The notes under the pieces were generated by a model that saw only the letters and a list, made by a program, of their open reading frames with translations, searched no databases and was not told the DNA's origin. Below are positions 141 to 46,303 of a stretch of DNA of 64,000 bases, one piece after another. Position numbers and translations under genes: made by a program. The stretch lies in IMG/VR virus record IMGVR_UViG_3300042914_002848, one strand, 5' to 3'. Source of the DNA: a virus. Lineage: Duplodnaviria; Heunggongvirae; Uroviricota; Caudoviricetes. Numbering within the stretch: position 1 is the stretch's first letter; the number at the start of each line of letters is the position of its first letter.

Positions 141-782
141 TTAAGATAACTCAAATGCTTCAATAGTTAATTCAAACGGATTATCTTCCAACTTTTTTAC
201 TTCATCTAACATCATTTGAGCCAATTCTCTTACCTCCAACTGCGCATGTTCACTATTTCTCAACTTTTGGAAATGATAAAATGAACGCCAATTAAACATA
301 ACATCCATACTAATTTGAGAGTTCATAGTTTTGAAAAACCTTGCACTCTCTTTTGCTCTTTTTCTACCTAATATGGGTGTGAGTTCTTCTAAACATTCAT
401 GATATAATCTATTACAATCATCGGTATTTTCTTTTAGTATCTTGGCCCAGTCTCTTACTACAGGGCTGTCGTGTGTAAACCAATCATCTGGAATGTAGGT
501 TTTATCTTCTTTTAGTTCTTTGTAACGGGCACTCTCCCCATTAATTGAAACACCAATGCGATGCTTGAGTAAGTGGATATGAGTTGCCTGGTCTACTGTA
601 ACAAGAAAATGAAGAGACGATTTTTCAAATGGTGTATGGTGTCCTTCACTTGCGAGCATCTTTAACAACTTACCAACTCTACCGATTTTTTCTTCAGTTA
701 AATCTCGTGATGTAGATGTCCATGCGGATTGGGCATGAACTAAATCCGAACCATAATATCCTAATAATTCTATTTTATTCAT
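141..782 (-). CDS. thyX: FAD-dependent thymidylate synthase ThyX
   Basis: 213 aa. ThyX signature KHRIGVSINGESARY matches RHRxxSxxxxSxR. Size and context fit a phage nucleotide-metabolism gene. Confidence 0.85.
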   Translation of the reverse strand: MNKIELLGYYGSDLVHAQSAWTSTSRDLTEEKIGRVGKLLKMLASEGHHTPFEKSSLHFLVTVDQATHIHLLKHRIGVSINGESARYKELKEDKTYIPDDWFTHDSPVVRDWAKILKENTDDCNRLYHECLEELTPILGRKRAKESARFFKTMNSQISMDVMFNWRSFYHFQKLRNSEHAQLEVRELAQMMLDEVKKLEDNPFELTIEAFELS

Positions 783-1305
783 AACTTTCTATTGTTTCGT
801 TGTTATAAGTTATTGTGATTAGTTTGGTTGGGATACTAGGATCTTTAGATTTAACTGTACCAATACTATAATTAGTATCCACTTTACCCACACCCCTTCT
901 TATATTATATAATATATTCAATTCACTTTTACTCAACTCTCTTTCCTCAATCTTTAATCCCCACCTTTCAGAGAACCCAGGTTGTGTTTTAGATTCAATA
1001 ATAAATTCATCTCTATTACACATACGACCCATAATACTTTTCCCGTCAGGTGATATTTCTACTTTACACCATCTGGTTTCCATAAAGTTTGTGGTCATAT
1101 AATTGTAGTAATTCTCATACGCCTCATCAATCATCTGATTGTAAATGTTTACCTCATCCCATTCTTTATGTTCATTATCACCAACTAGTTTATAGTATTT
1201 ACCTTCATATTCCCAGATACTATCCCAATTTTCTTTTAATCTTGGATTATCTGGATATGCTCTACCTGATTGGTCATAATTTAATTTACCCTTTTTAATT
1301 TTCAT
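775..1305 (-). CDS. hypothetical protein, tandem paralog A
   Basis: 176 aa. Shares QMIDEAYENY and FSERWGL(K/L)I(E/K)E blocks with the next ORF. Confidence 0.6.
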   Translation of the reverse strand: MKIKKGKLNYDQSGRAYPDNPRLKENWDSIWEYEGKYYKLVGDNEHKEWDEVNIYNQMIDEAYENYYNYMTTNFMETRWCKVEISPDGKSIMGRMCNRDEFIIESKTQPGFSERWGLKIEERELSKSELNILYNIRRGVGKVDTNYSIGTVKSKDPSIPTKLITITYNNETIESYE

Positions 1306-1621
1306 AAACTTCTATTATTTCGTTTTTATAAACAACAATCAATTTATTTTTTCTTTTTGGTTTTGTAATTATAACATCACCAAAATCTTCTGTATGTGGA
1401 ATCAAGTCGTAAGTTTCTTTTATTAACAATCCCCACCTTTCAGAGAACTTTGAATCAGTTTTACATTTGTCAATGAATTCTTCTTTTGTGTAGGGGATAG
1501 GTATATTCATTTTACCAATAGGAGTATCAACTTCCTCTTGTTTTAACCATTTAATATCACCACCTTTTAAGTAGTTCTCATACGCCTCATCAATCATCTG
1601 ATTCATTTTTTCGTTATTCAT
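1295..1621 (-). CDS. hypothetical protein, tandem paralog B
   Basis: 108 aa. Carries the same MIDEAYENY and FSERWGL motifs as 775..1305. Confidence 0.6.
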   Translation of the reverse strand: MNNEKMNQMIDEAYENYLKGGDIKWLKQEEVDTPIGKMNIPIPYTKEEFIDKCKTDSKFSERWGLLIKETYDLIPHTEDFGDVIITKPKRKNKLIVVYKNEIIEVYEN

Positions 1622-1822: not shown

Positions 1823-2425
1823 TTAATTCGTAAAGTTTACGGTTAAATTAGGATTACCAAGAAAATCAGGTTTTTTGTAATACTCCCATACTTCATCTAA
1901 TTGTTTTGGGTCTTTCACCCACATAATCCAATCAGCTTTTTTAATTTCTTCCTCCAACACATCAATGTAAAATGTTTTTGGTATAAATGGAAATCCTTTG
2001 ATTTCCAAAGAACTATGAAATCGGTTTGTATTGTTGATAGCATCTTCTCGAGTCATATAAATAGGTCCCGACCAAGTTGTTCCATTAGGACATCTTTTAA
2101 TAATAGCGTCATTATATGTAACCCTCCCATCGCTATCCTTAAACAATCCACTTTCTCTTTTATTTTGATACCAGGGTTCACCTGCTATATCTCTAATATC
2201 TCCCCACTCTTCATCTTTTCCTGTAATAGGCCCCAGTGGTTCGTAATTAGCTAATTTGTGAAATAAGGATGCTACAATCGGTGCTGAACCACCTGAGTGT
2301 CCTTGTTTTGCGAAGACTTCCATTAATTCCATAACCGCCTCCCCAATGGCTCCTGCGTAGTCAGAATCTTCATCAAAGAAGCCTGCTAATTCTAATTCAA
2401 ATTTTGCGTGTGATGTTGTGCTCAT
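1823..2425 (-). CDS. hypothetical protein
   Basis: 200-aa ORF; no motif recognised. Confidence 0.55.
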   Translation of the reverse strand: MSTTSHAKFELELAGFFDEDSDYAGAIGEAVMELMEVFAKQGHSGGSAPIVASLFHKLANYEPLGPITGKDEEWGDIRDIAGEPWYQNKRESGLFKDSDGRVTYNDAIIKRCPNGTTWSGPIYMTREDAINNTNRFHSSLEIKGFPFIPKTFYIDVLEEEIKKADWIMWVKDPKQLDEVWEYYKKPDFLGNPNLTVNFTN

Positions 2426-3482: not shown

Positions 3483-3827
3483 TTAGAAATCATCCCCATC
3501 TCGAACAGAATTCCACACAATAGCGTGACCTGAAGATTGTGTTATTTGTAGTATTGGACCATAAATAGGGGTGCCTGGATTAAAAGTTAATCCAGTACTA
3601 GTACCAACACCAATAAACCCACCATTTGCGACAGGATTAATACCATCCGTTTTCATTCTAATAACAGCAACCGATGCCTGTATTGGATAGTAGCAATACG
3701 CAGTTGATACAATGGTACGATTATTAATAGAGCCTGATGGAACTGAAAAACTCATACTCACAGAGCCTGATAGATATGTTCCCCCACCTAAACCAAATTC
3801 ACTTTTTAATGGATGTATTTGAGCCAT
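3483..3827 (-). CDS. hypothetical Gly/Ser-rich protein
   Basis: 114-aa ORF. Confidence 0.45.
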   Translation of the reverse strand: MAQIHPLKSEFGLGGGTYLSGSVSMSFSVPSGSINNRTIVSTAYCYYPIQASVAVIRMKTDGINPVANGGFIGVGTSTGLTFNPGTPIYGPILQITQSSGHAIVWNSVRDGDDF

Positions 3828-3845
3828 TATTTTCTCCTTTTTATT

Positions 3846-4604
3846 TTATAAACCACTCTTTTTCAATGCTCTTGCAGTCTCAACCCACTTTTTACCAATA
3901 GGGTTATACACAGGCCTTCTCATAAATTCATTTACAGCTTTTTGAACTGCGGATGGTGGTGGACCATAAGTTGTATTATCAATTATTCTATAATCTTTTG
4001 CACCAAATAGGGTTTGAAACTTACCCATGTTCTCTTGACAATCCTTCCAAATAGATGTTACTAACTCATCTGATAGTGTTCTATCTCTACCACGATTTCT
4101 TTCCTTAGCAACCTCCAATGATGTATTTACAAACACCATCATACAATCGTATCCCAACGATTCAGCGTGTTGTTTTTGTTTTTTAATTTTTGCAAAATCA
4201 TCACCCGTCCCATCTATAATCAAACCTAAACGGCCTGCTTCATAGAAATCTCGTTGGGCTTTAGTTATCTGCTTTGCTCTATCCCTAATACCATTAGGAA
4301 CTTCCGTAATTTTCTTCCATAATTCAGGCTCTTCTTTTTCAATTCTACCCAAATCTTTTGGATTAATACCATTTTTCTTTAATTGTGCTTCAAACGCAGT
4401 ATCGGAGTTAATTACTTTTAATCCAGATTGAGCAAAACTTGCTTTGAATCTTCTATCAATACCAAATATTTCTTCTGATGTGAAACTTTTCCCTGAACCA
4501 GGACCCCCTGCCATAAATATACACTTTAATATACCAGGGTCATCAACACCTTCTATAAGGTAATTATTCTGAATAATTTTATTAAGTATTTCTTTTAATT
4601 TCAT
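3846..4604 (-). CDS. P-loop NTPase, kinase-like (AAA_33 / zeta-toxin-like fold)
   Basis: Walker A motif FMAGGPGSGKSF near the N-terminus; 252 aa. Candidate nucleotide or polynucleotide kinase. Confidence 0.55.
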   Translation of the reverse strand: MKLKEILNKIIQNNYLIEGVDDPGILKCIFMAGGPGSGKSFTSEEIFGIDRRFKASFAQSGLKVINSDTAFEAQLKKNGINPKDLGRIEKEEPELWKKITEVPNGIRDRAKQITKAQRDFYEAGRLGLIIDGTGDDFAKIKKQKQHAESLGYDCMMVFVNTSLEVAKERNRGRDRTLSDELVTSIWKDCQENMGKFQTLFGAKDYRIIDNTTYGPPPSAVQKAVNEFMRRPVYNPIGKKWVETARALKKSGL

Positions 4605-4627
4605 TATTATACTCCCAATATAAATAG

Positions 4628-4864
4628 TTATTTTTTTGTTTTAAATGAGTTTGAAATACCCTTAAAAAACCCAACAACAAATCCGGCAATTAATGAAATT
4701 AAAAATATTGGCGCAAGGATTGGCCACATGAAAGGCCATCCAATGATAGCACCATCACTTAAAGTGAATTTTTCATCAATAAACCTAAGTGAGTATAATA
4801 TAGGAGAAAATATTAAATACCCCAATAGATATATCTGAATATATTCGTGTATCATTTCCAACAC
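4628..4864 (-). CDS. small membrane protein
   Basis: 78 aa with two hydrophobic helices. Confidence 0.45.
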   Translation of the reverse strand: MLEMIHEYIQIYLLGYLIFSPILYSLRFIDEKFTLSDGAIIGWPFMWPILAPIFLISLIAGFVVGFFKGISNSFKTKK

Positions 4865-5100
4865 CTCCTAAGAACTTCAATCAAATCCTTTAAATCAGTT
4901 TCATTTTTTATTTTGAATTCATTTGATTCAAAGAAATAACAATACCAAGTATCATCTTTGATTTCATCGCTTGATGATGTTATCAAACACAAATCACCGA
5001 TATCCAATGTATAATAGTGCCAATCGGTAGGAGCACCGGATTCTTCTGCAGTTACAACTGTTTTTTCAAATCCAAGTTCTAAAAATATTTGTTCTCTCAT
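4852..5100 (-). CDS. hypothetical protein
   Basis: 82-aa ORF. Confidence 0.45.
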   Translation of the reverse strand: MREQIFLELGFEKTVVTAEESGAPTDWHYYTLDIGDLCLITSSSDEIKDDTWYCYFFESNEFKIKNETDLKDLIEVLRRCWK

Positions 5101-5102
5101 TA

Positions 5103-5387
5103 TTATAATTTTTTAAATTTAGGACTACAACCCAAATAGATTGAGTTTTTGAATGGTGTTACTCTATGGGTTTTAATTTTATGTTTCTTAATAACTTCAT
5201 CTACGATTTCAGAAAATTCATATTCACAAATTTCATGTGCCATAAAATCAATTACCTTTTGCCCATTTTCATCTATGGAGGCGTTATTCATTAATTCATC
5301 AAAATCGGCTGATGGGGTGGATGCTTTATATAGTTTCCTATAGCATTCCCTCATTGCTTCTATTTCTTTTGTTGTTGCGTTCATCAC
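5103..5387 (-). CDS. hypothetical protein
   Basis: 94-aa ORF. Its first 10 codons lie inside the 57-bp direct repeat. Confidence 0.5.
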   Translation of the reverse strand: MMNATTKEIEAMRECYRKLYKASTPSADFDELMNNASIDENGQKVIDFMAHEICEYEFSEIVDEVIKKHKIKTHRVTPFKNSIYLGCSPKFKKL

Positions 5388-5414
5388 AATTTTTCTACTT
5401 TAAGTTCACCATCA
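5358..5414. repeat. 57-bp direct repeat, copy 1 (spans the GS 3' end and the 5103..5387 gene's 5' end)
   Basis: Differs from 6435..6491 at 2 of 57 positions. Confidence 0.85.
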
Positions 5415-6409
5415 ATTTGTTTTAAGGCATCCGAAATAACTTTAACAATCTTATACGGGTCTGCATTTGAAGCAGGCCTTCTATCCTCAATATATCCCTT
5501 CCACTTCAATGATGTTTGAATGGGAACTCTTAAAGATGCACCTCTATCAGAAACACCCCAACTAAACTTATGTATGGATTGGGTTTCATGCTTACCTGTT
5601 AATCGTTGTTCATTAGATGAACCATAATTTTCAATATGTAAAGTGTGTCTACTTTCAAAAACATTGAATATTTTAGAAAAGTATTCCATTCCCCCAATTT
5701 CTCTCATTATGTGGTTTGAAAAATTACAATGTAATCCACTACCATTCCAATCACCCATAACAGGTTTTGGGTGAAACTCAATTTTATATCCCCACTTTTC
5801 GGATAACCTTTGTAAGATATATCGTGATATCCACAAGTCATCTGCAGCAGATTTTGATGAGGTATTGAATATCTGATATTCCCACTGTCCCAAAAGTACT
5901 TCTGCGTTGGTGCCTGTTATTGATAATCCAGTATTTAAGCAAATTTCAAGATGTTCATCTACGAATTTTCTACCACTTACATGCCCATCACCCACACCAC
6001 AATAATACATACCCTGTGGTGGTGGAAATCCATTTATTGGAAACCCAATCGGTCTACCATCTTTTAAAATAGTATATTCCTGCTCAAATCCATACCATAC
6101 ATTATCATAATCAGGTAATATGTGTCTAATATTACTTTCGTGTGGTGTCCCATCAGGATTCATAACCTCACACAAAACAAAATAACTTACATATGACCCC
6201 CCATCCATAGAATTTTGGTATAAAGCAACAGGTTTAAGTATTCTGTCAGAATAATGCCCTTCGGCCTGTTTTGTGGATGAACCATCGAATGACCACTCTG
6301 GGCAATCAGATAGGGTTATAGAATCTTTTTTGGATAATATTTTAACTTTACTTCTTAGGTTTGGTTCGGGTGTATATCCATCCAACCAAATGTATTCTAA
6401 TTTTATCAT
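5384..6409 (-). CDS. glnII: glutamine synthetase, type II (eukaryote-like GSII) homolog
   Basis: 341 aa, collinear with GSII. Matching blocks: EYIWLDG, GMYYCGVG, NAEVLLGQWEYQIF, HCNFS, RLTGKHETQSIHKFSWGVSDRGASLRVP, GYIEDRRPASNADPY. Confidence 0.8.
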   Translation of the reverse strand: MIKLEYIWLDGYTPEPNLRSKVKILSKKDSITLSDCPEWSFDGSSTKQAEGHYSDRILKPVALYQNSMDGGSYVSYFVLCEVMNPDGTPHESNIRHILPDYDNVWYGFEQEYTILKDGRPIGFPINGFPPPQGMYYCGVGDGHVSGRKFVDEHLEICLNTGLSITGTNAEVLLGQWEYQIFNTSSKSAADDLWISRYILQRLSEKWGYKIEFHPKPVMGDWNGSGLHCNFSNHIMREIGGMEYFSKIFNVFESRHTLHIENYGSSNEQRLTGKHETQSIHKFSWGVSDRGASLRVPIQTSLKWKGYIEDRRPASNADPYKIVKVISDALKQIDGELKVEKL

Positions 6410-6434
6410 ATTAATCTTTTAATTTATTATATAT

Positions 6435-6491
6435 TTCTATTTCTTTTGTTGTTGCGTTCATCACAATTTTCCAACTTTAAGTTCACCATCA
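6435..6491. repeat. 57-bp direct repeat, copy 2 (spans the phosphatase 3' end and a truncated 16-codon copy of the 5103 gene's start)
   Basis: See copy 1. It encodes the shared C-terminal tail DGELKV(E/G)KL. Confidence 0.85.
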
Positions 6492-7180
6492 TATATTAAA
6501 TATTCTTTTGAAGGTAAAGCATCAATCATATAGTATTTACCCCCCATTGATTTATCTGTTGATTTAATATCAATAGATTCAACTCCGGTGTGACCTACAA
6601 TTTGGATGAACCTACCTTTAATAGAATCTTTTCCTCTTTTTTTATTTGACCATAACAAAGATCGTGGACGAATCCAAATTGGTGATTGAACTACATCATC
6701 ACCATAGGGGTCCCACCCATTAAATTTAAAAATAGATGGGGTGTATGTGAATGTTTCATTTAATTTCTCAACCAAATTATCACAATTCCACATATTTCTA
6801 AACCACCTATCCATAAATACTGAAGATACACCTGCGTGTGTGCATAGGAACTTATCAAACGAATATGCCATTTGAAGATGTTCCATATTTTCTTTCAGCA
6901 CCATTTCTATATCAAATTTAAGAGCAGGTTGAAAACCACTATAAGTTTGACCAACATTCATATAATGAAAGTCGTGATTACCTACTAATAGGATAACCTC
7001 TTTACCGCTTGTTTTTTTATATTCAATTATTTCTTTGAAATTATGAATTTGGTCTATGCCAGGTATATCAAAAGAATCAAAGTAATCTCCAATAAAGATA
7101 ACCCTATCAGCGTTTTCTTTTGCTACAATGTCCTTCCAAATTGGACGGCCATGTATATCTCCAATAAATATTGTTTTCAT
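6461..7180 (-). CDS. PPP-family metallophosphatase (lambda Ser/Thr phosphatase-like)
   Basis: Contains GDIHG, GDYFD and GNHDF metallophosphoesterase motifs. Start set at MKTIFIGDIHG, directly downstream of a promoter element. Confidence 0.75.
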   Translation of the reverse strand: MKTIFIGDIHGRPIWKDIVAKENADRVIFIGDYFDSFDIPGIDQIHNFKEIIEYKKTSGKEVILLVGNHDFHYMNVGQTYSGFQPALKFDIEMVLKENMEHLQMAYSFDKFLCTHAGVSSVFMDRWFRNMWNCDNLVEKLNETFTYTPSIFKFNGWDPYGDDVVQSPIWIRPRSLLWSNKKRGKDSIKGRFIQIVGHTGVESIDIKSTDKSMGGKYYMIDALPSKEYLIYDGELKVGKL

Positions 7181-7183
7181 ACT

Positions 7184-7216
7184 TAAATATACGAATAAGT
7201 TTTTATATTTCCAAAT
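7184..7216 (-). promoter_or_regulatory. conserved phage promoter element (TTTGGAAA, 20 nt, TATATTTA)
   Basis: Identical over 33 bp to 7619..7651. Matches the Bacteroidetes -33 TTTG / -7 TAnnTTTG architecture. Confidence 0.6.
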
Positions 7217-7293
7217 ATTACTTACACAAATACAACATAATCCCGGTGGATAGGTGAAGTAAAATGGGACAAATGGGCGAGTTATACACAATA

Positions 7294-7605
7294 CTAAGAT
7301 TGTGGCTCAAATTCAGATTTCAATTTAAGGTAATTTTCATACCTACGTTTTCTCAATTCTTCTTTAATGTATTCATTATCAGAAATTCGTTTTTGATATT
7401 CTTCGTCAGTTTCTTCTCGTTCTCGAATAACAACTAATTCAGTGTAGGCATCGTAAGAATTGTTTTTACTATAAAAACTTTCTTCTCTACGAATATCAAT
7501 AATATCATTTTCTTGAATGTCTTTCGGTAAATCAGAAAAACGAATTTCTTGAAAATTACCTTTGAAATCTTTAGTGTAGATTTCTTCTTTTACTTTCTGT
7601 TTCAT
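7294..7605 (-). CDS. hypothetical protein
   Basis: 103-aa charged ORF. Confidence 0.5.
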   Translation of the reverse strand: MKQKVKEEIYTKDFKGNFQEIRFSDLPKDIQENDIIDIRREESFYSKNNSYDAYTELVVIREREETDEEYQKRISDNEYIKEELRKRRYENYLKLKSEFEPQS

Positions 7606-7618
7606 ATTATTTATTTTG

Positions 7619-7651
7619 TAAATATACGAATAAGTTTTTATATTTCCAAAT
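7619..7651 (-). promoter_or_regulatory. conserved phage promoter element
   Basis: Exact 33-bp copy of 7184..7216, sitting 14 nt upstream of the ATG at 7605. Confidence 0.6.
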
Positions 7652-8158
7652 TTAATCCCACCAAGTCTTTAATCCTGTTTCCTTATCTTTTATGATATTA
7701 CAAAATTCTTCCCATTCCTTTTCATCCAATTCAGCAGAATATAAAAATACCTTGCTATTGTGTTCCCTCTCTTCATCGGTTAATTTATCTTCATAAGTAA
7801 ATAAATCCGGATTACCATCCAATGGAATAAAATCACCATCTTTATCAATTAACTTACCATACTTTTCTTCAGCCATATCCATATAAACATAATCATTCAA
7901 TTGGTTTTTTAGGATTTGACTTGCTCTTTCCATTTTAGCAATTTTAGGGATGCGAGTAGAAATGACTTCATTACTTTTGGCTAAAGTTCTATTCCCCATA
8001 TGCTCAATAGCTATCTGCATGAATTGCAATAGAGTGTAGTAATCCCACCATCTAAATTGATATAGTGGTTTTCTAAACCTCCAAATGTTTTTGAAAAAGT
8101 TTATTAGACATTTTACCTGATAGATAAATTCGGTGTAGTAATATTTAAGGCTGTTCAT
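7652..8158 (-). CDS. hypothetical protein
   Basis: 168-aa ORF. Confidence 0.5.
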   Translation of the reverse strand: MNSLKYYYTEFIYQVKCLINFFKNIWRFRKPLYQFRWWDYYTLLQFMQIAIEHMGNRTLAKSNEVISTRIPKIAKMERASQILKNQLNDYVYMDMAEEKYGKLIDKDGDFIPLDGNPDLFTYEDKLTDEEREHNSKVFLYSAELDEKEWEEFCNIIKDKETGLKTWWD

Positions 8159-8543
8159 AATCTGACATTAATTTATTTAGTAAATCGTTTCGTTCCTCAT
8201 CTGTCATAATTTGATATTTTGAGAGGTAGTAATCATTTACTTTATTTTCTTCCAAATATTGATGTAATTCTTCTATGGTTCTACATAGTTCATTCCCATC
8301 TTTATCTGTCATTGTCAAATCGGTTCGTTTCCCAAAATTCTTTTCATAACACCACCAATCGAATGTATCTATACCTTCCATACCATAAATTGAACCAATC
8401 AACATAGTGATAACACTTTCATATGAGCCTGTAAAATTTATATGGTCAATACCTGCTTCATATGCTTTATCTAATTTTTGTTGTTGTTCTTTAAGTTCAA
8501 AAATAATTCTTTCAAATACTTCCGGTCTTATGCTGTAATCCAT
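8145..8543 (-). CDS. hypothetical protein
   Basis: 132-aa ORF. Confidence 0.5.
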   Translation of the reverse strand: MDYSIRPEVFERIIFELKEQQQKLDKAYEAGIDHINFTGSYESVITMLIGSIYGMEGIDTFDWWCYEKNFGKRTDLTMTDKDGNELCRTIEELHQYLEENKVNDYYLSKYQIMTDEERNDLLNKLMSDYEQP

Positions 8544-8833
8544 TGTGTTTTGTTTTTAAATTGAATACTTTCATTTCCATCATATTCTTCAATAGTGAAT
8601 TCTTCACCTTCATCTACCCATACTACTTCTAAATCTTCAACCCCTCCCGTATAAAGCTTCGAATAAGTATTTCTAACATACTCGTTTGCACTATCATAAT
8701 CTTGTGATTCAACCAACTCTACTAACTTCGGGTCAAATATTGCTTCAAGAGGAGCACCCCAAGTATAAAATCCAGCTCCAAATCCATATGAAATAAGAAC
8801 TGCTACCTTACCATCTCTAATTACTTTGTTCAT
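8528..8833 (-). CDS. hypothetical protein
   Basis: 101-aa ORF. Confidence 0.5.
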   Translation of the reverse strand: MNKVIRDGKVAVLISYGFGAGFYTWGAPLEAIFDPKLVELVESQDYDSANEYVRNTYSKLYTGGVEDLEVVWVDEGEEFTIEEYDGNESIQFKNKTQWITA

Positions 8834-8838
8834 AACTT

Positions 8839-9405
8839 TTAATTTTTATCTAATTCACATTTGATTTTATTACAATCTTTTGTCCCCAAATGAACTGAAC
8901 TATCTACAGTTATATTTGAACGAGTTTCATCTTGTTTCCAAAATTCATGACGAATAACTTGAAGAATATCATAAGCCACTCTTGCACTTTCATCTACATC
9001 AGGATTATAAATACCAAAACTTCCACCATTACTAAAATTTTCCTGTAAAAGCATGTTAGCACCTGTGTGTAGAATCTTATCCGCCTCATCCCTAATTCTG
9101 TGGTATTCTCCATAATCAATGGATAGTTTTACATTCTCAACATCAGTCCATGTGCGGACTTCTTCACCATTACCCCAATGACCTTTGGTTTTAATATACC
9201 CATCTCCAATTTCTACAACTTCCCCACGTTCAGTACTATCACCAACTTCTATTTGTTTTTTGGGTCTAAGTTTATCACGTAAAACATTGTAATAAGTTGG
9301 GTGGTCTTTAATTGCCCATAATTGACCTATACCGATACGGGAATACATGTCTAGTGCTTGTTGAATTAATCTAAGTTGTTCGTTTGTAACTTCTAATGTT
9401 GCCAT
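8839..9405 (-). CDS. hypothetical protein
   Basis: 188-aa ORF. Confidence 0.5.
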   Translation of the reverse strand: MATLEVTNEQLRLIQQALDMYSRIGIGQLWAIKDHPTYYNVLRDKLRPKKQIEVGDSTERGEVVEIGDGYIKTKGHWGNGEEVRTWTDVENVKLSIDYGEYHRIRDEADKILHTGANMLLQENFSNGGSFGIYNPDVDESARVAYDILQVIRHEFWKQDETRSNITVDSSVHLGTKDCNKIKCELDKN

Positions 9406-11781: not shown

Positions 11782-11802
11782 ATCTTTTTCAATAAGTATA
11801 AT

Positions 11803-11837
11803 GTAAATATACCACACAAATGGTATATTTCCAAATT
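11803..11837 (-). promoter_or_regulatory. conserved phage promoter element
   Basis: Reads AATTTGGAAATATACCATTTGTGTGGTATATTTAC on the minus strand. Confidence 0.55.
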
Positions 11838-11876
11838 TTGTATATTAAATTTGCGTTAAGTTTTTTGAGTAAAAAA

Positions 11877-12104
11877 TTAACTATTAAAGTACTCCCTCAA
11901 ATGAGTAACTTTTTCAAGTCCAGACTCAAAATTACCCTCAACCCACCAAAAAAACTGAGCCCTCTCCCCCGTCATACCATCATTGGGTAATTGATTGAAA
12001 AGGTTTTTGGCCTGTTTATGCTGCCCATTATGGATACTCTCCAAAATATACTCATAATACTCTTCTTTGGTTGAAAAACCAAAATCATTTAATAGTTCTG
12101 TCAT
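11877..12104 (-). CDS. hypothetical protein
   Basis: The ORF-track start at 12131 is a TTG; ATG at 12104 (MTELLNDFG) is more likely the real start. Confidence 0.5.
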   Translation of the reverse strand: MTELLNDFGFSTKEEYYEYILESIHNGQHKQAKNLFNQLPNDGMTGERAQFFWWVEGNFESGLEKVTHLREYFNS

Positions 12105-12111
12105 TTTAAAA

Positions 12112-12270
12112 TTATTTAATAATATAATCAATTAATTGGGTAATTAGATAAAAAACCGATATCAACTGATAAGCCATCATCGTCAAAAAGCCAAGCGTAA
12201 TAATGGCCACCGATTGAACAAATATCCGAAGGGGTTTCATACTCATTGAGGTTGTTTCCATATCAATCAT
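12112..12270 (-). CDS. possible small membrane protein
   Basis: 52-aa ORF (MIDMETTSMSMKPLRIFVQSVAIITLGFLTMMAYQLISVFYLITQLIDYIIK) that starts 8 nt after a promoter element. Confidence 0.3.
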   Translation of the reverse strand: MIDMETTSMSMKPLRIFVQSVAIITLGFLTMMAYQLISVFYLITQLIDYIIK

Positions 12271-12278
12271 CTTACATA

Positions 12279-12311
12279 GTAAAGATACGAAGAAAACCCC
12301 ATATTTCCAAG
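12279..12311 (-). promoter_or_regulatory. conserved phage promoter element (part of a duplicated terminator-promoter module)
   Basis: Reads CTTGGAAATATGGGGTTTTCTTCGTATCTTTAC on the minus strand. Near-identical copy at 21619..21652. Confidence 0.55.
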
Positions 12312-12350
12312 CTTTCTATATTAAATTTAGGTTAAATTTATCCACATTTT

Positions 12351-12379
12351 TTGTGGAAAAGTGTCCAATTTATTGGACA
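12351..12379 (-). terminator. rho-independent terminator (in duplicated module)
   Basis: Inverted repeat TGTCCAAT-TT-ATTGGACA followed on the minus strand by CTTTTTCCACAAAAAA. It begins 5 nt after the NUDIX gene's stop. Confidence 0.55.
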
Positions 12380-12383
12380 GTTC

Positions 12384-17535: not shown

Positions 17536-17570
17536 TAAATATACAAAATAATTTTTAAATTACCAAAATT
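17536..17570 (-). promoter_or_regulatory. conserved phage promoter element upstream of groES
   Basis: Reads TTTTGGTAATTTAAAAATTATTTTGTATATTTAT on the minus strand. Confidence 0.5.
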
Positions 17571-19517: not shown

Positions 19518-19535
19518 ATCTTTTATTTATTTTAG

Positions 19536-19618
19536 TAGTCAGGACAGGATTCGAACCTGTATTAGGGCTTACGACCTATGATACTCTATTTACTACAACG
19601 CCATGTAGCCACCTGACT
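19536..19618 (-). tRNA. tRNA-like element (83 nt)
   Basis: On the minus strand: 7-bp acceptor stem AGTCAGG/CCTGACT, T arm ACAGG-TTCGAAT-CCTGT, D stem CTAC/GTAG with GG in the loop. No canonical anticodon stem could be drawn by eye. Confidence 0.5.
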
Positions 19619-19834: not shown

Positions 19835-19852
19835 AACTTTTTATTTTTTTTG

Positions 19853-19974
19853 TAGTCAGGACAGGATTCGAACCTGCGGAGAACGGCTTGATAGTTTCTG
19901 CGCGAGGGCTACTTAATTCGCCACCCCTCAATCCTTGTTCTCAATTACGCTGCGGATACCACCGCCACCTGACT
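19853..19974 (-). tRNA. tRNA-like element, atypically long (122 nt)
   Basis: Same acceptor stem and T arm as 19536..19618, D arm GCGG-TGGTAT-CCGC, plus about 40 extra internal nucleotides. Confidence 0.35.
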
Positions 19975-20278: not shown

Positions 20279-20482
20279 TCAGGCGTGCTTTTCTTCCCAA
20301 ATTCGTAAAGTTTCATCAATTTCTTCGGGAGAAAGTTTATCTGCTAACTCTTCTAATTCGTTAGCAACATCATCAGAACACATGCCATAGGTCTCAATCA
20401 TACGATTAGCCTTCTCTTGAAGGTGAATAAATCGGCGAACATTTTCGTTTCTCACAATAATGGGGGTTAGTATCTCAATCAT
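20279..20482 (-). CDS. hypothetical protein
   Basis: The ORF-track start is a TTG; ATG at 20482 (MIEILTP) lies 6 nt after the promoter's -7 box. Confidence 0.45.
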   Translation of the reverse strand: MIEILTPIIVRNENVRRFIHLQEKANRMIETYGMCSDDVANELEELADKLSPEEIDETLRIWEEKHA

Positions 20483-20488
20483 TACATA

Positions 20489-20522
20489 GTAAATATACAA
20501 CAGAAAAATGGAGTTTCCAAAC
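20489..20522 (-). promoter_or_regulatory. conserved phage promoter element
   Basis: Reads GTTTGGAAACTCCATTTTTCTGTTGTATATTTAC on the minus strand. Confidence 0.5.
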
Positions 20523-20636
20523 TTTGTATGTTAAATTTAGGTTAAATTTTTAACTTAATTAAGCCATCATCAGTTCATTTTTAAGTTGTTCCTGATAGGG
20601 GTTATCCGACATCACAAATGTATCGTATTACTGGTG

Positions 20637-21065
20637 TTACCAATCGTTTTCAGAACCAACTTTTACTAAATCCACACTTTCTGAATAATAACCGTTTGAT
20701 GAGCCATACCAACGAATATCTACATATCCTTTTATGGTTGCCAATTTGTAAAATGTCCAAGTGAACGAATATTCATAATCGTAATAGTTATCACCTTCTT
20801 CAAGTTTCTTCTTTTCCTTTTCAGCTAATTGTTCAGGCGTATGTTCACTTGAACTGTTTTCTTCTGCAACCAAAATAGGGCTACCTACCAAATCATTTAA
20901 GTCACCGTTGATGTCATCTATTGATACACCTTCGCAACAATCTTGTCTGTGGTACATTTTGTATTCAGTTCCATCATCAACGGTAAAAATTATTTCATCG
21001 TTGGCTTCGTTTTTTACTACGGCAGTTAATGTTTTGCCTAAAAGTTGTTCAATTCCTGTTTCCAT
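20637..21065 (-). CDS. hypothetical protein
   Basis: 142-aa ORF. Confidence 0.5.
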
Positions 21066-21165
21066 TTTAGTTATATTTAATTTTATGTATTTTCTTATAT
21101 TTTTAAATTATACCATAGGAAATCCGGCGCGGGAAATAGTTGTTGATGGTAGTGGTTTAGAATTT

Positions 21166-21588
21166 TTAGCTACCTACCAATGCAGCAACCAACGCATCGT
21201 GCGCTGCTCCTTTAGGTTGTTTAATCATTACACCATTATAATTGGTGTATTGTGGTGCGGATGAACTCCAACCTTTTGAGTGATTACTAAAAGCCCGTTG
21301 GCCATAGTTAGCAGCAACCATTGGTGATACCTTTCCAATATTATCCCATCCACTTTCCCACTTTTTCAATTCGGTTTTTTCCTTAAAAGTGATACTATCT
21401 TCGGTAAACCCAGCAATCATTTTAGTTGGTGCTTTACGGAAAATGTTTTTACGCTCCTCACGATTTATCTCAATAAACAATACTGAGCGGACTTTTACCC
21501 TACAAACCTTTAGGTTCATAGTGTAATCCTTACCATTCACTGGGATGGTCACTGCGACAACTTTACCTTCCAAACTTTGTAGTTCCAT
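21166..21588 (-). CDS. hypothetical protein
   Basis: 140-aa ORF. A G8/T7 homopolymer tract sits just upstream of its ATG. Confidence 0.5.
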   Translation of the reverse strand: MELQSLEGKVVAVTIPVNGKDYTMNLKVCRVKVRSVLFIEINREERKNIFRKAPTKMIAGFTEDSITFKEKTELKKWESGWDNIGKVSPMVAANYGQRAFSNHSKGWSSSAPQYTNYNGVMIKQPKGAAHDALVAALVGS

Positions 21589-21618
21589 AATATAGGGGGG
21601 GTTTTTTTATCTTACATA

Positions 21619-21652
21619 GTAAAGATACGAAGAAAAACCCATATTTCCAAAC
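21619..21652 (-). promoter_or_regulatory. conserved phage promoter element (second copy of the duplicated module)
   Basis: Near-identical to 12279..12311. Confidence 0.55.
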
Positions 21653-21692
21653 TTTTGAGATTAAAATTCCATTAAAGTTATCCACATTTGTG

Positions 21693-21718
21693 TGAAAAAG
21701 TGTCCAATTTATTGGACA
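21693..21718 (-). terminator. rho-independent terminator (second copy of the duplicated module)
   Basis: TGTCCAAT-TT-ATTGGACA hairpin followed by CTTTTTCACAC on the minus strand. Confidence 0.5.
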
Positions 21719-21724
21719 GTTGGG

Positions 21725-23063: not shown

Positions 23064-23099
23064 TATAAATATACAAAAGAAAGTTTAATTATCCAAATT
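23064..23099 (-). promoter_or_regulatory. conserved phage promoter element
   Basis: Reads AAATTTGGATAATTAAACTTTCTTTTGTATATTTATATGT|ATG on the minus strand. Confidence 0.5.
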
Positions 23100-26692: not shown

Positions 26693-28408
26693 TTAATAAG
26701 TTAAAGTTGATTGATTTGTAAATCCTGGTGATAATAAATATAGGTTTGTTGTACCTCCACTCAAAGGAGTAAAAGTATAGGTAGATTGAACTCCTGGTAT
26801 TGAACTTCTTAAATCGGTTGTGCTGGTGGTTAAGGTTGTCCATTGTGAGTTTGTGAATAGTAAAGTTCTTTTAGTATAAGCCAACCCATTCACCCTTTTG
26901 ATTATTGTATTTATATCCCCAATCGTAATATTATTATCACCATTTAATTCATATTTGTGGTAGTGGTAAGACCTGAGTGGTGTTCTTTGTAATATAATAT
27001 CATCAACTCCTACAAAATCAATAGAAGATAGATTTGAGGTTGTAGTTGGGATTACTACTTCAATATACCATTCATCTCCGTTTGTTATTGGCTGTGAAAA
27101 TGAATATTCCCCTAAAGTGTTTGTTGTAGATGTGGTTTGTTGAGTCCAAGAAGTGAATGTTGGTGCTAATACACCCAACTCCGATGTTTGTAATGAATAG
27201 GTACTTTGATTGGGTCTTTTCCAAACAACAGCCAATCCATCACCCCCACCATATTCTTGCATCCTTGCTCTAAAAGTGTATTGAGTCCCCGCTACTAAGT
27301 TTATATTCCCATATATCGGCCCACTCATTCCGTGTCCACCATAATAACTTACTACAAAAGTTCCACCAATGAATAAATCACTACCATCATCTGAATTTAT
27401 ACCAAATGAGTATGTCCCACTTACAGCAGGTATAAATGTCCCCGTAACTTCAACCGAATAGTAATCTCCATTATTGGGAACAGTTGCACCTGCATTTCTT
27501 ATAGTTGTAAATGTATTAAAGTTTAAGCAAGTTGTTGTAGGTAATGTCCCCGACCATCTGAGTTGAGTATTCGTAAAGGTTGTATTGAACAATCTATCAA
27601 ATTCAGTTGTGTTCGTTGGATGCGCCACATATTGTGATGTGTTTCCATTTCCAGCATGCGTTGAAAAAACCTTTACATCCATCACATTAGATAATCCAAT
27701 TGTTTGACCCCTCTTAAAAAGTTTTGTAAGTATGTTTGAAACAGGTACATCGTTTTCAGTTCTGATAATGCCTGAGTGTGTAAAAGGTATGAAGGGTGTA
27801 AACAATACAGATGAATTAGAAGTCGGACTCCAATTAACACCATTTCTACCTGTTGTTGTGATTATTTGTGAGTTATTGTTGTTTGATATCCCTTGAAGAG
27901 ATGCACCAGAAGAACACCCCGGATGTGTACTGACATTTATTTGTATTGTATTTGTTGTTTCTGATAATACGATTTGAAAATCCGTAAAAAGTGTGGTGCT
28001 GGAATTACAGCTATAATAACCTATATGATAACTTACAACAAATTTTCGGTTTGGAGATGAACCAATGGTTTGGTATCTTACAAAGTAACCAGAGATTGGA
28101 AATAAATCCATAGCATTGGCATGAATACCATTACTTACTACACTATTAGGCGAACCACCAACAATATCACCACCTGCATTTGTAAAAGATATCCATCCAT
28201 TAGAACATATATTGACTGTTGTAAAATTTGTTCCCCAATAACTGAATGTAAAACCTATTGGTAAATTAGATATAGTTTGGTCATCCCCCAAAGTTAAAGC
28301 AGTCCCAGCAGTTGATTCGTATGAGTAGGTTGGTGTTGATTGGGTATAACTCATTTGCCCAAATACCGAAAATGGTAGTAATAGTAATAATATCAACTTT
28401 TTCATCAT
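26693..28408 (-). CDS. secreted PA14-domain protein (carbohydrate-binding, adhesin-like)
   Basis: Signal peptide MMKKLILLLLLPFSVFGQ. PA14-like block GTYSFGINSDDGSDLFIGGTFVVSYYGGHG...LVAGTQYTFRARMQEYGGGDGLAVVW. Confidence 0.6.
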   Translation of the reverse strand: MMKKLILLLLLPFSVFGQMSYTQSTPTYSYESTAGTALTLGDDQTISNLPIGFTFSYWGTNFTTVNICSNGWISFTNAGGDIVGGSPNSVVSNGIHANAMDLFPISGYFVRYQTIGSSPNRKFVVSYHIGYYSCNSSTTLFTDFQIVLSETTNTIQINVSTHPGCSSGASLQGISNNNNSQIITTTGRNGVNWSPTSNSSVLFTPFIPFTHSGIIRTENDVPVSNILTKLFKRGQTIGLSNVMDVKVFSTHAGNGNTSQYVAHPTNTTEFDRLFNTTFTNTQLRWSGTLPTTTCLNFNTFTTIRNAGATVPNNGDYYSVEVTGTFIPAVSGTYSFGINSDDGSDLFIGGTFVVSYYGGHGMSGPIYGNINLVAGTQYTFRARMQEYGGGDGLAVVWKRPNQSTYSLQTSELGVLAPTFTSWTQQTTSTTNTLGEYSFSQPITNGDEWYIEVVIPTTTSNLSSIDFVGVDDIILQRTPLRSYHYHKYELNGDNNITIGDINTIIKRVNGLAYTKRTLLFTNSQWTTLTTSTTDLRSSIPGVQSTYTFTPLSGGTTNLYLLSPGFTNQSTLTY

Positions 28409-30721: not shown

Positions 30722-32623
30722 TTAGAATTTAAATATTTTGTAAACTTTTTGCTTTTCGTTAGTGGTTAATCTTACAAAGTAAAAACCTGTCTTTAAATCA
30801 CTAACATTGATTTTTTTCGTAACTACTTGATTTTGATTTACGAACTCTTTTTCTGAATAAAAGTTTTTACCCATATAATCGTAGATTTCGTATGTTAAAT
30901 ATCCCCAATCAGTTTGGAAATAATCTATGTTTAAGTTGTCTTGAACAGGGTTAGGATATACTCTGAATCCATTCACCAATTGGTCTACCAACTCTCTTGC
31001 TCTTCTACCATTAACCACAGTCGCATCTACAGGTGAAGGGATGATATTCAAATCTTCTGCTTTTTCATTTCCCGCTGCTTTGTTGGTTATTTTAATAGGT
31101 GATTGTTCCCAGTTTTGATTTAAGATTTCAAATTGGAAATTGAACATTTGAGTTGGGTTGGTGATAAGTGATGGAGACATTTTAGATTCGTGTCCACCCC
31201 AAGTTATCTCACCAGGCTTTGCTGAAATGAATGCGTTCCAAGCACTTGCTTCAGGCCCTACATTAACATTTGTAAACCTAAAAATGGTTGGGTCATACTT
31301 TAAAGATAATTGTGCCGCACCTACTTTGTTTCCGTGTGTGATAAAGGTAACAGCAACATTTACTGAATTATCATCTGAAATAGTTAATTTAGGTATTCTA
31401 AATTGAACCGAATCTTCAATGTTTTGATAGATTGTTCCTTCATCCAATACATAAGATGTTCCGCTTGTTGGGTTGTTTACTCTTTGAATTTGGAATGATA
31501 AGTTGTTTAATCCAGTATTTGTTACATCCCCTAAAACATACCCTCTATAACTTAACGAACTTAATCCATTCAATGGAACATCAATGTTAGTTGTACCTAT
31601 GATATTGGTTTGGAATACATCTGGGTTAGCCATAATCGTAGCGTATTCTCCTGCGGTATAATACCTAATATTGTATTCATTTGCTACTACAGGAGACCAA
31701 GTAGTTCTACCTGTTGCTAAACGATTAAATATTAAATAAGCATCGGATACGGATAATGTGTTATTGCGGTTTACATCACCTTGTTGGAACTCGTATGCTT
31801 GGGCAGTATCAGCGTAAATACTCATATCGGATAATCTATAAGCATCGGTAATGTTGATAGCTGAATTATCAGATAGGGTATCTAAATTTGATACTAACTT
31901 AACATTGTAGAAAGATGTATCGTATGGGATTTTAATTCCTGCTAAACCAGCAGCGTCTGTTACAAATCTTTCACCACGACTATAAGTTTGTGTGGTTTTC
32001 AGTTTGTAATCAAATGCGAATGGCATATCCGGCGCAGGTGTTCCATCTACATTTAATAAGGTTACGGGGAACACCAAAGTATCCATTTGGAATCTACCTC
32101 CGTAGCTGTAAACACCTAAAGCGTTATCAACACCAGCGGTTGTGGTTGCTATGTTTGTGTAGGCAGGGGTAGATTGAACTTCTAATGAATCAACGGAAGA
32201 AGGATTGAACCCAACGGCGTGTGGGAGTAAAACTTCAAATATAGCACCATCTGGCCAATCAAATACTGCTGATGTCCCAGTATAGATTGCCGTTGCGTTT
32301 ACCCAACCAGGCTGACTATAATAAGAACCATACTTTGTACCGATTCCTGCTGCGGTTGGTCCCCATTTTACAATAGGTTGCTTGAAAGCTGCGGTAGGGT
32401 AAAAAAATCTTACCTGAAAACCAGCATAACTTACTGCAGTTGGATTGTGATAGTGTAAATATACTACAGTAGTGTCCTCTAATACACTACCCAATGTAAA
32501 CACCGTATCAATCAAAAAGTGTGGTGAGTTTGAGTTTGGTGATACTAATACTTCCGTTCTTCCGTTTTGAGCAAATGCTCCAAATGGTAAAAGTAACGCA
32601 AATAATAAAATAAGTTTTTTCAT
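30722..32623 (-). CDS. secreted protein with type IX secretion system C-terminal sorting domain (T9SS cargo)
   Basis: Signal peptide MKKLILLFALLLPFGAFAQ. C-terminal CTD: YPNPVQDNL...EIYDYMGK...INVSDLKTGFYFVRL...KVYKIFKF, matching the Por_Secre_tail pattern. Confidence 0.7.
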   Translation of the reverse strand: MKKLILLFALLLPFGAFAQNGRTEVLVSPNSNSPHFLIDTVFTLGSVLEDTTVVYLHYHNPTAVSYAGFQVRFFYPTAAFKQPIVKWGPTAAGIGTKYGSYYSQPGWVNATAIYTGTSAVFDWPDGAIFEVLLPHAVGFNPSSVDSLEVQSTPAYTNIATTTAGVDNALGVYSYGGRFQMDTLVFPVTLLNVDGTPAPDMPFAFDYKLKTTQTYSRGERFVTDAAGLAGIKIPYDTSFYNVKLVSNLDTLSDNSAINITDAYRLSDMSIYADTAQAYEFQQGDVNRNNTLSVSDAYLIFNRLATGRTTWSPVVANEYNIRYYTAGEYATIMANPDVFQTNIIGTTNIDVPLNGLSSLSYRGYVLGDVTNTGLNNLSFQIQRVNNPTSGTSYVLDEGTIYQNIEDSVQFRIPKLTISDDNSVNVAVTFITHGNKVGAAQLSLKYDPTIFRFTNVNVGPEASAWNAFISAKPGEITWGGHESKMSPSLITNPTQMFNFQFEILNQNWEQSPIKITNKAAGNEKAEDLNIIPSPVDATVVNGRRARELVDQLVNGFRVYPNPVQDNLNIDYFQTDWGYLTYEIYDYMGKNFYSEKEFVNQNQVVTKKINVSDLKTGFYFVRLTTNEKQKVYKIFKF

Positions 32624-34712: not shown

Positions 34713-34713
34713 A

Positions 34714-35271
34714 TCAAACCCAATGTGTAAATTTAACTCCAATTTTTTCAATTTCTTTTATCAATTCAATTGTACTGTTTTTATCTTCCCCATTTTCTAA
34801 AATAGGATACATATCTTTGTGTGAATGAAACTCTACAAATAAATCATTTAGATATTGAATTGAATTATCTTCTATCATTTTTCTCAAAACAGCATATTCC
34901 GCACCTTCTATATCCATTTTAACAACTATAAAATCATCTTTAGAAAAATTTTGTATTATAAATTCGCTAAAATCCAAACACATTACATCAATAGAGCCAT
35001 AGTAATTTTTTCCTATATGGTTTTTATATATAGATGATGAATCGGTGTTTGGGTATGCAATATTAAACGTAATTATTTCATTATTAGTATATATTGCTTT
35101 ATTAATGTAATGAATATTATTGTGAATATTTTGTTCGTTGTGCTCTTGCCATAAATAAGTGTTAGGTTCAAATGAGTATATTTCCCAACTACTATCCATA
35201 TTATACATTTGTATGAATTTCATTAAACCCTCTGCCAAATGTGTCCCGCAATCTAAAAATATTTTTTTCAT
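34714..35271 (-). CDS. FkbM-family methyltransferase
   Basis: FLDCGTHLAEG and the overall FkbM layout. Confidence 0.55.
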   Translation of the reverse strand: MKKIFLDCGTHLAEGLMKFIQMYNMDSSWEIYSFEPNTYLWQEHNEQNIHNNIHYINKAIYTNNEIITFNIAYPNTDSSSIYKNHIGKNYYGSIDVMCLDFSEFIIQNFSKDDFIVVKMDIEGAEYAVLRKMIEDNSIQYLNDLFVEFHSHKDMYPILENGEDKNSTIELIKEIEKIGVKFTHWV

Positions 35272-35283
35272 ACTATCTAATTA

Positions 35284-38742: not shown

Positions 38743-38760
38743 TAGATATAAATTTTATAG

Positions 38761-40113: not shown

Positions 40114-40114
40114 T

Positions 40115-42075: not shown

Positions 42076-42131
42076 ATTTTAATTTTTGTATTTTATTTTT
42101 TAAATTTATATAAAAACTATTTTATATAGAG

Positions 42132-43019: not shown

Positions 43020-43020
43020 A

Positions 43021-44001: not shown

Positions 44002-44024
44002 TTTTATTTATTTTTATTTATTAT

Positions 44025-44780: not shown

Positions 44781-44789
44781 TGTTATTTT

Positions 44790-45458: not shown

Positions 45459-45523
45459 TTTGTTTTAAATTTTATTTTATCAAGCAATGTACTAAACCAC
45501 TTGAATTCATATATAATATTTTT

Positions 45524-46297: not shown

Positions 46298-46303
46298 ATA
46301 ATA

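Follow-up and report, generated by a model that had tools for sequence, protein, structure and literature searches.

Does a tailed phage that carries a gene for glutamine synthetase (GS) own a working enzyme, from which lineage was the gene drawn, and how did it come to lie between phage genes? These questions are raised by a 64,000-nucleotide stretch of viral DNA (IMG/VR record IMGVR_UViG_3300042914_002848, the whole of which is referred to as the window), in which the gene occupies positions 5384–6409 of the minus strand. From residue conservation and structure modelling, we put the probability that its product would have canonical GS activity (glutamate + NH4+ + ATP → glutamine + ADP + Pi) at roughly 0.75.

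As regards the identity of the protein, both Pfam domains of the family, Gln-synt_N (PF03951, residues 4–85) and Gln-synt_C (PF00120), were detected above their gathering scores, and the 341-aa chain shows the architecture of the 330–375 aa class, namely an N-terminal beta-grasp domain followed by a C-terminal catalytic domain. Specifically, the NCBIfam model of the type II enzymes (GSII, model GlnII, NF041605) aligns GS residues 2–328 with profile positions 3–327 of 333 (E = 1.8e-115), and the protein scores 386 bits against GlnII, compared to 51 bits against the type I GlnA model and 28 bits against type III. A search of PDB sequences led to a comparable result: yeast GSII (3.9e-94), the Streptomyces coelicolor enzyme (1.2e-92), plant enzymes and human GS (about 1e-86) were recovered, with type I (GSI) enzymes appearing only at about 1e-10 or weaker. 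Judged from its sequence, the assignment of this reading frame to GS is far beyond chance.

The first-pass annotation had described a protein collinear with GSII through all of its catalytic blocks, and an alignment of human GLUL, the window GS, phage homologs and two cellular relatives bears this out, as all the metal- and substrate-binding positions align gap-free (the human reference used is 100% identical to PDB 8dnu_A over 373 residues). The six metal ligands, corresponding to E134, E136, E196, E203, H253 and E338 in the human enzyme, are all present as E109, E111, E170, E177, H227 and E308, and the loss of Glu or His ligands that had been envisaged was not seen. The ammonium-site residues D63, S66, Y162 and the E305 flap of the human enzyme are kept as D42, S45, Y136 and E275, and the same holds for the residues contacting glutamate and ATP (in human numbering G192, N248, G249, N255, S257, R262, R299, R319, R324, Y336, R340 and R341). 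The sole departure at a critical position is human K333, replaced by W303, at a position that is also non-Lys in active plant, yeast and Streptomyces GSII. Over 40 phage homologs, 128 columns are invariant and include all the catalytic residues. In the human GS cryo-EM structure, the audited positions bind Mn2+ and substrates (PMC9713474), and alanine substitutions at these positions cut the activity of mammalian GS to below 5%, 5–15% or 15–50% (PMC6601560). With its catalytic residues intact, a pseudo-enzyme is ruled out by this residue audit.

An AlphaFold monomer model, computed on an alignment of 40 homologs, reached a predicted template modelling score (pTM) of 0.84 and a mean predicted local distance difference test score (pLDDT) of 79.9. 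When compared to PDB structures through Foldseek, the best match was Streptomyces GSII (4bax, TM 0.86); the decameric enzymes of human, maize and yeast came next (TM about 0.8). The window GS would presumably assemble in the same way, two pentameric rings being stacked into a decamer whose active sites lie at the subunit interfaces.

The ratio of non-synonymous to synonymous substitution rates (dN/dS, Nei–Gojobori) was 0.16 against a 90%-identical ortholog from a related phage (contig L005; dS 0.39) and 0.25 against a 98%-identical variant (L001), which indicates that the phage gene is under purifying selection. In conclusion, the locus provides a clean argument, drawn from sequence comparison, for an intact GS under selection.

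The main competing function is that of a gamma-glutamyl ligase acting on another amine, such as a polyamine, ethanolamine or a sugar amine, in a phage-specific modification pathway. GS-fold enzymes have repeatedly evolved such specificities, and a DegT-type sugar aminotransferase encoded in the glycan-biosynthesis island of the window makes unusual nitrogen-containing products plausible. In addition, the phage clade has invariant residues of its own, for example W303 and the Tyr at the GH-Y-SD position, and the protein scores under the GlnII equivalog cutoff. However, the small ammonium pocket (D42, S45, Y136, E170 and the E275 flap) is kept, and the known alternative ligases are GSI-like: the PuuA/GlnA3 type measures about 440–470 aa, as opposed to 341 aa and a GSII layout in the window protein, which obtained 20.2 bits from the gamma-glutamylputrescine synthetase model (NF045547, GGputSyn), whose cutoff is 650. 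Moreover, cellular members of the same branch, found in ordinary chromosomal contexts, share the sub-cutoff scores, and the glycan island lies about 27 kb from GS. The non-canonical ligase put forward in the first-pass annotation is thus disfavoured by the conserved ammonium pocket, and we regard it as improbable.

Returning to the origin of the canonical GS that we favour, at least 8000 relatives were retrieved from a large protein database, and the best 120 all share 65% identity or more with the window protein. Homolog contexts sampled at 75%, 73% and 70% identity were all phage-like, with genes for T4 RNA ligase, DUF3310, Hc1, DnaJ and CHU_C proteins and many unannotated open reading frames (ORFs); IMG/VR yielded 44 GS loci at 43–98% identity. 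Among cellular genomes, taken as one per species, the closest copies were found in a Heimdallarchaeota metagenome-assembled genome (MAG; 63%), in Catalimonadaceae (Bacteroidota; 62%, on a 717-kb contig) and in Saprospiraceae (58%), followed by Opitutae (about 52%) and Myxococcota (46–48%). The Heimdallarchaeota and Catalimonadaceae matches were considered as possible mis-binned phage DNA, which was ruled out since both contexts are cellular.

These sequences were placed in a neighbour-joining tree (70 sequences, 322 columns, 100 bootstraps, no outgroup), whose homologs, retrieved from genomes and viral contigs by exact peptide patterns, represent a biased sample. The window GS falls in a large viral clade, which is joined to the Heimdall sequence with 87% support. 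The viral clade, together with Bacteroidota and Verrucomicrobiota, is split from Actinobacteria, Myxococcota and all eukaryotes in 99 of 100 bootstraps, and eukaryotic GSII sequences form a group of their own with a giant-virus MAG (90/100). The tree rules out a eukaryotic origin of the phage GS. Therefore, the term "eukaryote-type" used in the first-pass annotation is appropriate as a label for the GSII family, but not as a statement of origin, and the lineage that its proposed phylogeny points to is the bacterial, Bacteroidota/Verrucomicrobiota-like branch. On this sequence evidence, the phage GS belongs to a bacterial GlnII sub-branch compatible with the presumed host phylum.

A separate observation concerns the Heimdallarchaeota copy itself (MAG RS678, locus L012, contig PBWW01000069.1, positions 3989–4978). 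This GSII, 63% identical to the phage enzyme, lies between archaeal exosome, SBDS and IleRS genes, and it is nested with 100/100 support in a viral GS subclade (L058–L063 and L086), which hints that a virus- or bacterium-to-Asgard transfer could be behind it.

The way in which the gene entered the phage genome can be read from its borders, where the following features were mapped:

5103–5387, minus strand: ORF94, hypothetical protein, downstream flank; it adjoins the metallophosphatase gene directly in GS-less relatives
5358–5414, minus strand: downstream copy of a 57-nt junction repeat (55/57 identity), supplying the GS tail DGELKVEKL, the TGA stop, and the start and first 10 codons of ORF94
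5384–6409, minus strand: GSII coding sequence, 341 aa, ATG start, a single ORF
5384–5414, minus strand: GS codons 333–341 and stop, copied from the metallophosphatase tail, by repeat comparison
about 5415–6409, minus strand: GS codons 1–332, the native GS part, by homolog and empty-site alignment
6410–6434, minus strand: 25-nt AT-rich leader ATATATAATAAATTAAAAGATTAAT, which arrived with the GS cassette and is confined to the GS-bearing lineage
6411–6464, minus strand: remnant mini-ORF of 17 codons, VMNATTKEIEIYNKLKD and stop, in which the orphaned ORF94 start continues into the GS leader, with its stop codon 1 nt ahead of the GS ATG
6435–6491, minus strand: upstream copy of the 57-nt junction repeat, with the genuine metallophosphatase C-terminus DGELKVGKL and stop, then the orphaned ORF94 start
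6461–7180, minus strand: calcineurin-like metallophosphatase, 239 aa, upstream flank, with its real start at the ATG at 7180
7184–7216, minus strand: conserved 33-nt intergenic motif directly upstream of the metallophosphatase ATG, with an identical copy at 7619–7651; candidate promoter or regulatory element

The GS gene is bracketed by the two direct repeats, located 1077 nt apart, each of which comprises the final nine codons of the metallophosphatase gene with its stop, overlapping the start and the first ten codons of ORF94. In the related phage L005, the metallophosphatase ortholog ends with …YDGELKVGTINE and the GS ends with …DALREVEK; the tail motif is therefore that of the phosphatase and not that of GS. 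When viral contigs were searched with ORF94, seven contigs without GS were found (L092–L098), and in all seven the metallophosphatase gene and ORF94 abut, the two proteins being 92–99% and 68–95% identical to those of the window, respectively. GS-minus relatives include the 102-kb record IMGVR_UViG_3300020204_000022. The nucleotide alignment clearly shows an unbroken junction in these seven contigs and an interruption of the window sequence after …GAAATAGAA, where a 1077-bp segment made up of the 25-nt leader, GS codons 1–332 and the 57-nt junction duplication has been inserted. Since even the most divergent relatives keep the junction uninterrupted, the empty site is ancestral; and since the breakpoints are identical in all the contigs carrying a 98–100%-identical GS, we conclude that a single insertion event occurred and was then inherited. 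(The TTG start listed by the program for the metallophosphatase gene, at 7291, is an over-extension.)

As the insertion duplicated the junction, the last nine codons and the stop of GS derive from the metallophosphatase tail. The chimeric C-terminus reported in the first-pass annotation is therefore real, being supported by the 57-nt repeat, by the origin of the tail and by the empty sites in seven relatives. The doubt that it had cast on enzymatic activity did not survive, as only about 2–5 native residues past the last conserved helix have been replaced by the nine borrowed ones, if the native tails of close homologs (REVEK, IEVENIKK, KEVGGI) are taken as a reference. The shortest natural homolog, the Heimdall protein of 329 aa, stops at about the position of the chimeric junction, and other phage GS homologs (370–430 aa) carry C-terminal extensions of 30–90 aa, from which this end of the protein would clearly tolerate change. 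By sequence comparison, the catalytic core is untouched by the chimeric tail, which appears benign. Such extensions were observed in the homologs P0018, P0080 and P0038 (L009, L010/L011); the Cys-rich one of P0018 (…CGICG…CDGSCG) suggests that a zinc-binding module has been joined to the enzyme.

The insertion left both neighbouring genes intact, and the GS stop codon overlaps the ORF94 ATG (TGATG), so that translational coupling from the metallophosphatase gene through the mini-ORF and GS to ORF94 could have been preserved. A scan for sigma-70 promoters and terminators dedicated to GS returned 16 sites against 16.6 in shuffled sequence, with none above chance, and no glnA riboswitch or other structured RNA upstream of GS was matched in Rfam, either window-wide at gathering thresholds or at E values up to 1 for positions 4500–7800. 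The repeated 33-nt motif is the only non-random promoter candidate near GS, the next gene upstream being that of the metallophosphatase, and it is from this motif that GS is a candidate for co-transcription. In the whole window, copies of the motif occur at 7184–7216, 7619–7651, 11804–11836, 17536–17568 and 23066–23096, two of them 100% identical; its gene-strand sequence is ATTTGGAAATAT...TATATTTA, and, placed immediately before start codons, it may represent a phage promoter of Bacteroidota-like flavour (TTTG / TAnnTTTG).

With respect to the route, Campbell-type integration of a circle through the 57-nt homology, or a staggered illegitimate recombination, could have generated this arrangement, and the cassette could be lost precisely if the 57-nt repeats recombined with each other. 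In contig L090, the upstream 57-nt copy has diverged to 50/57 identity. In the sister lineage L005, a DUF2452 gene (3706–4071) precedes GS, and a second metallophosphatase gene and a GT2 gene lie downstream; from these maps, the differing GS slots in closely related genomes are consistent with cassette mobility. GS-plus and GS-minus alleles co-occur in metagenomes with neighbouring sample numbers. A broader idea, which we advance tentatively and hold to be doubtful, is that GS behaves as a reversible single-gene module, with junction-duplicating insertion, clean excision and a balanced GS-plus/GS-minus polymorphism tuned to nitrogen, as an instance of a general and so far undescribed trade route for auxiliary metabolic genes in jumbo phages. 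Such a module would enter by Campbell-type or microhomology-mediated recombination, borrowing the stop codon and the translational-coupling signals of the 57-nt junction. Whatever the route, the locus offers a rare view, at nucleotide resolution, of the states before and after the gain of an auxiliary metabolic gene.

That the gene is phage-encoded, as had been proposed, is supported by the rest of the window. The minus strand holds 53 of the 54 ORFs that measure 150 aa or more, in unidirectional packing, and the window encodes a T4 gp43-type family-B DNA polymerase (phrog_262, 644 bits), a phage-type GroEL (phrog_5725, 530 bits), a gp44-like clamp loader, ThyX, a PD-(D/E)XK nuclease and a Tad3-like protein. 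Phage genes border GS on either side in the same orientation, and the identical gene arrangement recurs on IMG/VR viral contigs. The exact protein was found on 11 contigs, one of which measures 126.8 kb, some falling in the 0.2–1 Mb size class, and a 98%-identical variant on 14; GS contigs come from several samples, and related GS-bearing contigs in IMG/VR reach 213–228 kb. Among sequenced polymerases, the closest comes from Microcystis phage Mel-JY01 (50%), and a megablast search of window positions 4000–9000 against 50,697 phage records gave no match, so that no sequenced isolate is close to the window. All together, these sequence features point to a T4-like jumbo phage as the source genome, and GS, a cellular-type metabolic gene among bona fide phage genes, qualifies by context as an auxiliary metabolic gene.

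The host is most likely a freshwater Bacteroidota bacterium, as indicated indirectly by a type IX secretion system (T9SS) C-terminal sorting domain in the window and by a CHU_C protein in a related phage. The sorting domain (Por_Secre_tail) was observed together with a cohesin domain in one protein, having a neighbour with a PA14 domain (30722–32623 and 26693–28408, minus strand); phage proteins of this kind, which seem to exploit the type IX signal of Bacteroidota, serve as a clue to the host.

Further elements of the window were recorded. The protein encoded at 1823–2425 (minus strand) matches the Tad3 family of type I Thoeris inhibitors (PF25185, E = 1.8e-35) and is probably an anti-defence gene product, and a 197-aa ORF adjoining the DNA polymerase gene (57518–58111, minus strand) matches the DruA domain of the Druantia defence system (PF14236, E = 3e-8). 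The glycan-biosynthesis island spans roughly 20 kb (33525–52926, minus strand), with a GC content of 25–29% compared to about 33%, and it encodes at least eight glycosyltransferases (GT2, GT17, GT11, GT92-like, GT1/GT4), three FkbM-type methyltransferases, an RmlD-like reductase, a DegT/DnrJ/EryC1 sugar aminotransferase, a GDP-mannose-4,6-dehydratase-like enzyme and an epimerase, which by its gene content appears to be an unusually large phage-encoded glycosylation module.

No tRNA was found in the window by ARAGORN, and no Rfam family was matched. Two intergenic elements on the minus strand (19535–19618 and about 19850–19960) share an identical tRNA-type T-arm and acceptor 3' strand, CAGGTTCGAATCCTGTCCTGACTAC, and were recognised by ARAGORN and Rfam neither as tRNA nor as tmRNA. 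The first one folds into an acceptor stem, a D-arm and a T-arm, without an anticodon arm (minimum free energy −25.7 kcal/mol, z −2.4), and may be a tRNA-like RNA. An 81-nt repeat family is present in four intergenic copies, up to 88% identical, at 11793–12382 and 20479–21721, about 9.3 kb apart, accompanied by a 35-nt repeat (94% identical) with the inverted-repeat core GTGTCCAATTTATTGGACA. Finally, at 775–1621 (minus strand), repeat pairs of 57 nt (956/1428) and 34 nt (1107/1570; 97% identical), offset by about 465–472 nt, indicate by their positions a tandem partial duplication between the ORFs at 775–1305 and 1295–1621.

What would such a phage gain from the enzyme? Glutamine donates the nitrogen used to make purines, pyrimidines, NAD and amino sugars. 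We propose that GS is an auxiliary metabolic gene of a T4-like jumbo phage, belonging to an old, diverse and phage-borne branch of bacterial GlnII. In this lineage it entered recently, as a single-gene cassette without a promoter, precisely where the stop of the metallophosphatase gene overlaps the start of ORF94. Located among early or accessory genes, near ThyX and a kinase, it would probably share a transcript with its neighbours. The most likely role of the enzyme would be to maintain a high glutamine level in the infected cell, however host GS is regulated and to the presumable benefit of the phage, and glutamine would feed the amidotransferases of purine, pyrimidine and amino-sugar synthesis while a genome of more than 200 kb is replicated.

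Several data weigh against this proposal. By Pfam, neither a glutamine amidotransferase nor any other nitrogen-metabolism gene that could connect GS with a pathway was found in 51 of the 54 window ORFs of at least 150 aa. At this site GS is missing from close relatives, and the flanking repeats make its loss easy, so that GS is dispensable, at least here. The donor assignment, based on a neighbour-joining tree of a peptide-pattern sample, is provisional. In the monomer model, the low-pLDDT stretches are the active-site loops (136–138, 215–222 and 265–277), a pattern that fits an interface-dependent ordering of these loops. Moreover, with 385.7 bits the protein misses the equivalog cutoff of NF041605, set at 500 bits. 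However, cellular members of the same branch also stay below 500 (Bacteroidota 429, Heimdall 411, Opitutaceae 374), compared to 665 for Streptomyces. Because the whole sub-branch, cellular members included, scores 374–429, the sub-cutoff value would reflect the sampling of the model and not a decay of the phage copy, and degeneration was ruled out as its cause since chromosomal members of the branch score alike.

A different use of the same catalysis is also conceivable, in which GS serves as a signalling or takeover device: a raised glutamine/2-oxoglutarate ratio, or the binding of a regulator, would fake nitrogen sufficiency and rewire host regulation. The control of GS by adenylylation of GSI and by inactivating factors is established knowledge. 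A GSII would presumably be blind, in this host, to the regulation of the host GS types, and the gene sits among takeover and anti-defence genes, such as that of the Tad3-like protein; moreover, a survey of huge phages, cited below, contains speculation on nitrogen modulation in the same direction. On the other hand, no regulator-binding motifs were identified in GS, the sequence offers nothing that separates signalling from plain glutamine supply, and the idea, requiring the same catalysis, elaborates the glutamine-supply explanation more than it competes with it; as a distinct explanation we consider it very improbable. The least probable reading, that GS is a neutral or transient passenger heading for loss by recombination between the 57-nt repeats, would account for a recent insertion with repeats still 55/57 identical, for the absence of GS from the site in seven closely related contigs, and for a cassette without promoter or terminator of its own and with a C-terminus altered by insertion, but it fits poorly with a dN/dS of 0.16–0.25 and fully intact catalytic residues, with the recurrence of the protein (11 contigs for the exact sequence, 14 for the 98% variant), with the retention of GS in very divergent phage lineages (44 IMG/VR loci, and 248 huge-phage genes according to the same survey), and with the upstream repeat of L090, whose 50/57 identity is consistent with retention over time.

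If glutamine supply is indeed the role of this enzyme, a phage supplied with a GS that escapes host regulation could make virion production independent of the nitrogen status of the host, and such decoupling, if true, would shift the nitrogen flux through infected Bacteroidota in lakes and oceans. Current understanding is not overturned by the window GS.

In phages, 248 GS genes have been counted in 247 huge phages, with speculation on nitrogen modulation (bioRxiv 10.1101/2025.02.27.640493), 9 of 25 "moraphages", which are large aquatic phages with predicted Bacteroidota hosts, carry GS (PMC12619734), and glnA is listed among the auxiliary metabolic genes in a 2026 survey of jumbo phages (PMC13037316). 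As far as their available text goes, these accounts list the gene and speculate on its role; they do not type the GS, audit its active site, test it for selection, place it in a phylogeny, address how it was acquired or report an assay. All of these but the assay and an observed insertion mechanism are contributed by the window. By tblastn in a phage collection, the GSII-type copies were confined to four genomes of uncultured huge phages, and the remaining matches were GSI-type and located on bacterial or short fragment records; none of the cultured phages of this collection gave a GSII match. The copies in published huge phages of 735 kb and 634–642 kb are 46–57% identical to the window GS. 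The reported genes are of the same kind, and in the same kind of genome, as the one described here, namely that of large phages from aquatic, mostly freshwater or marine, settings whose predicted hosts are Bacteroidota. Homologs at about 70–74% identity are found in moraphage-like contexts with Hc1 and DnaJ genes (L009), whereas the window phage is of a T4-like lineage with GroEL.

Among cellular enzymes, the likeness to bacterial GlnII, exemplified by Streptomyces coelicolor GSII (4BAX), includes a length of about 330–345 aa, two domains, the best structural match (TM 0.86) and all the catalytic residues; however, the window GS is only about 48% identical to it and falls in a different sub-branch, which it shares with Bacteroidota, Verrucomicrobiota and a single Heimdallarchaeota MAG. 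The decameric eukaryotic enzymes (human GLUL 8DNU/2QC8, maize GS1a 2D3A and yeast Gln1 3FKY) are 45–47% identical, with the same active-site residues and the same fold, but the window GS has neither the N-terminal extension nor the "DPKGGLDN"-type loop insertion of animal GS. Giant viruses (Nucleocytoviricota) also encode a GSII, interpreted as a support for virocell nitrogen metabolism and represented here by one MAG copy at 43–44% identity; unlike the phage clade, it branches with eukaryotic GSII, which indicates by tree position an independent acquisition from eukaryotic hosts.

With respect to the mode of acquisition, Arbiol, Comeau and Krisch reportedly described in 2010 a modular shuffling of cassettes in T4-type phages, involving mini-circles and PeSL-flanked cassettes. 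The window shares with that system a single accessory gene placed between conserved genes of a T4-like genome and short direct repeats suited to Campbell-type insertion and excision, but its repeat is a duplicated 57-nt coding junction and not a regulatory stem-loop cassette. In conclusion, the window GS adds one more member to the phage GS genes already catalogued, and its most distinctive new detail is the insertion scar together with the matching empty sites.

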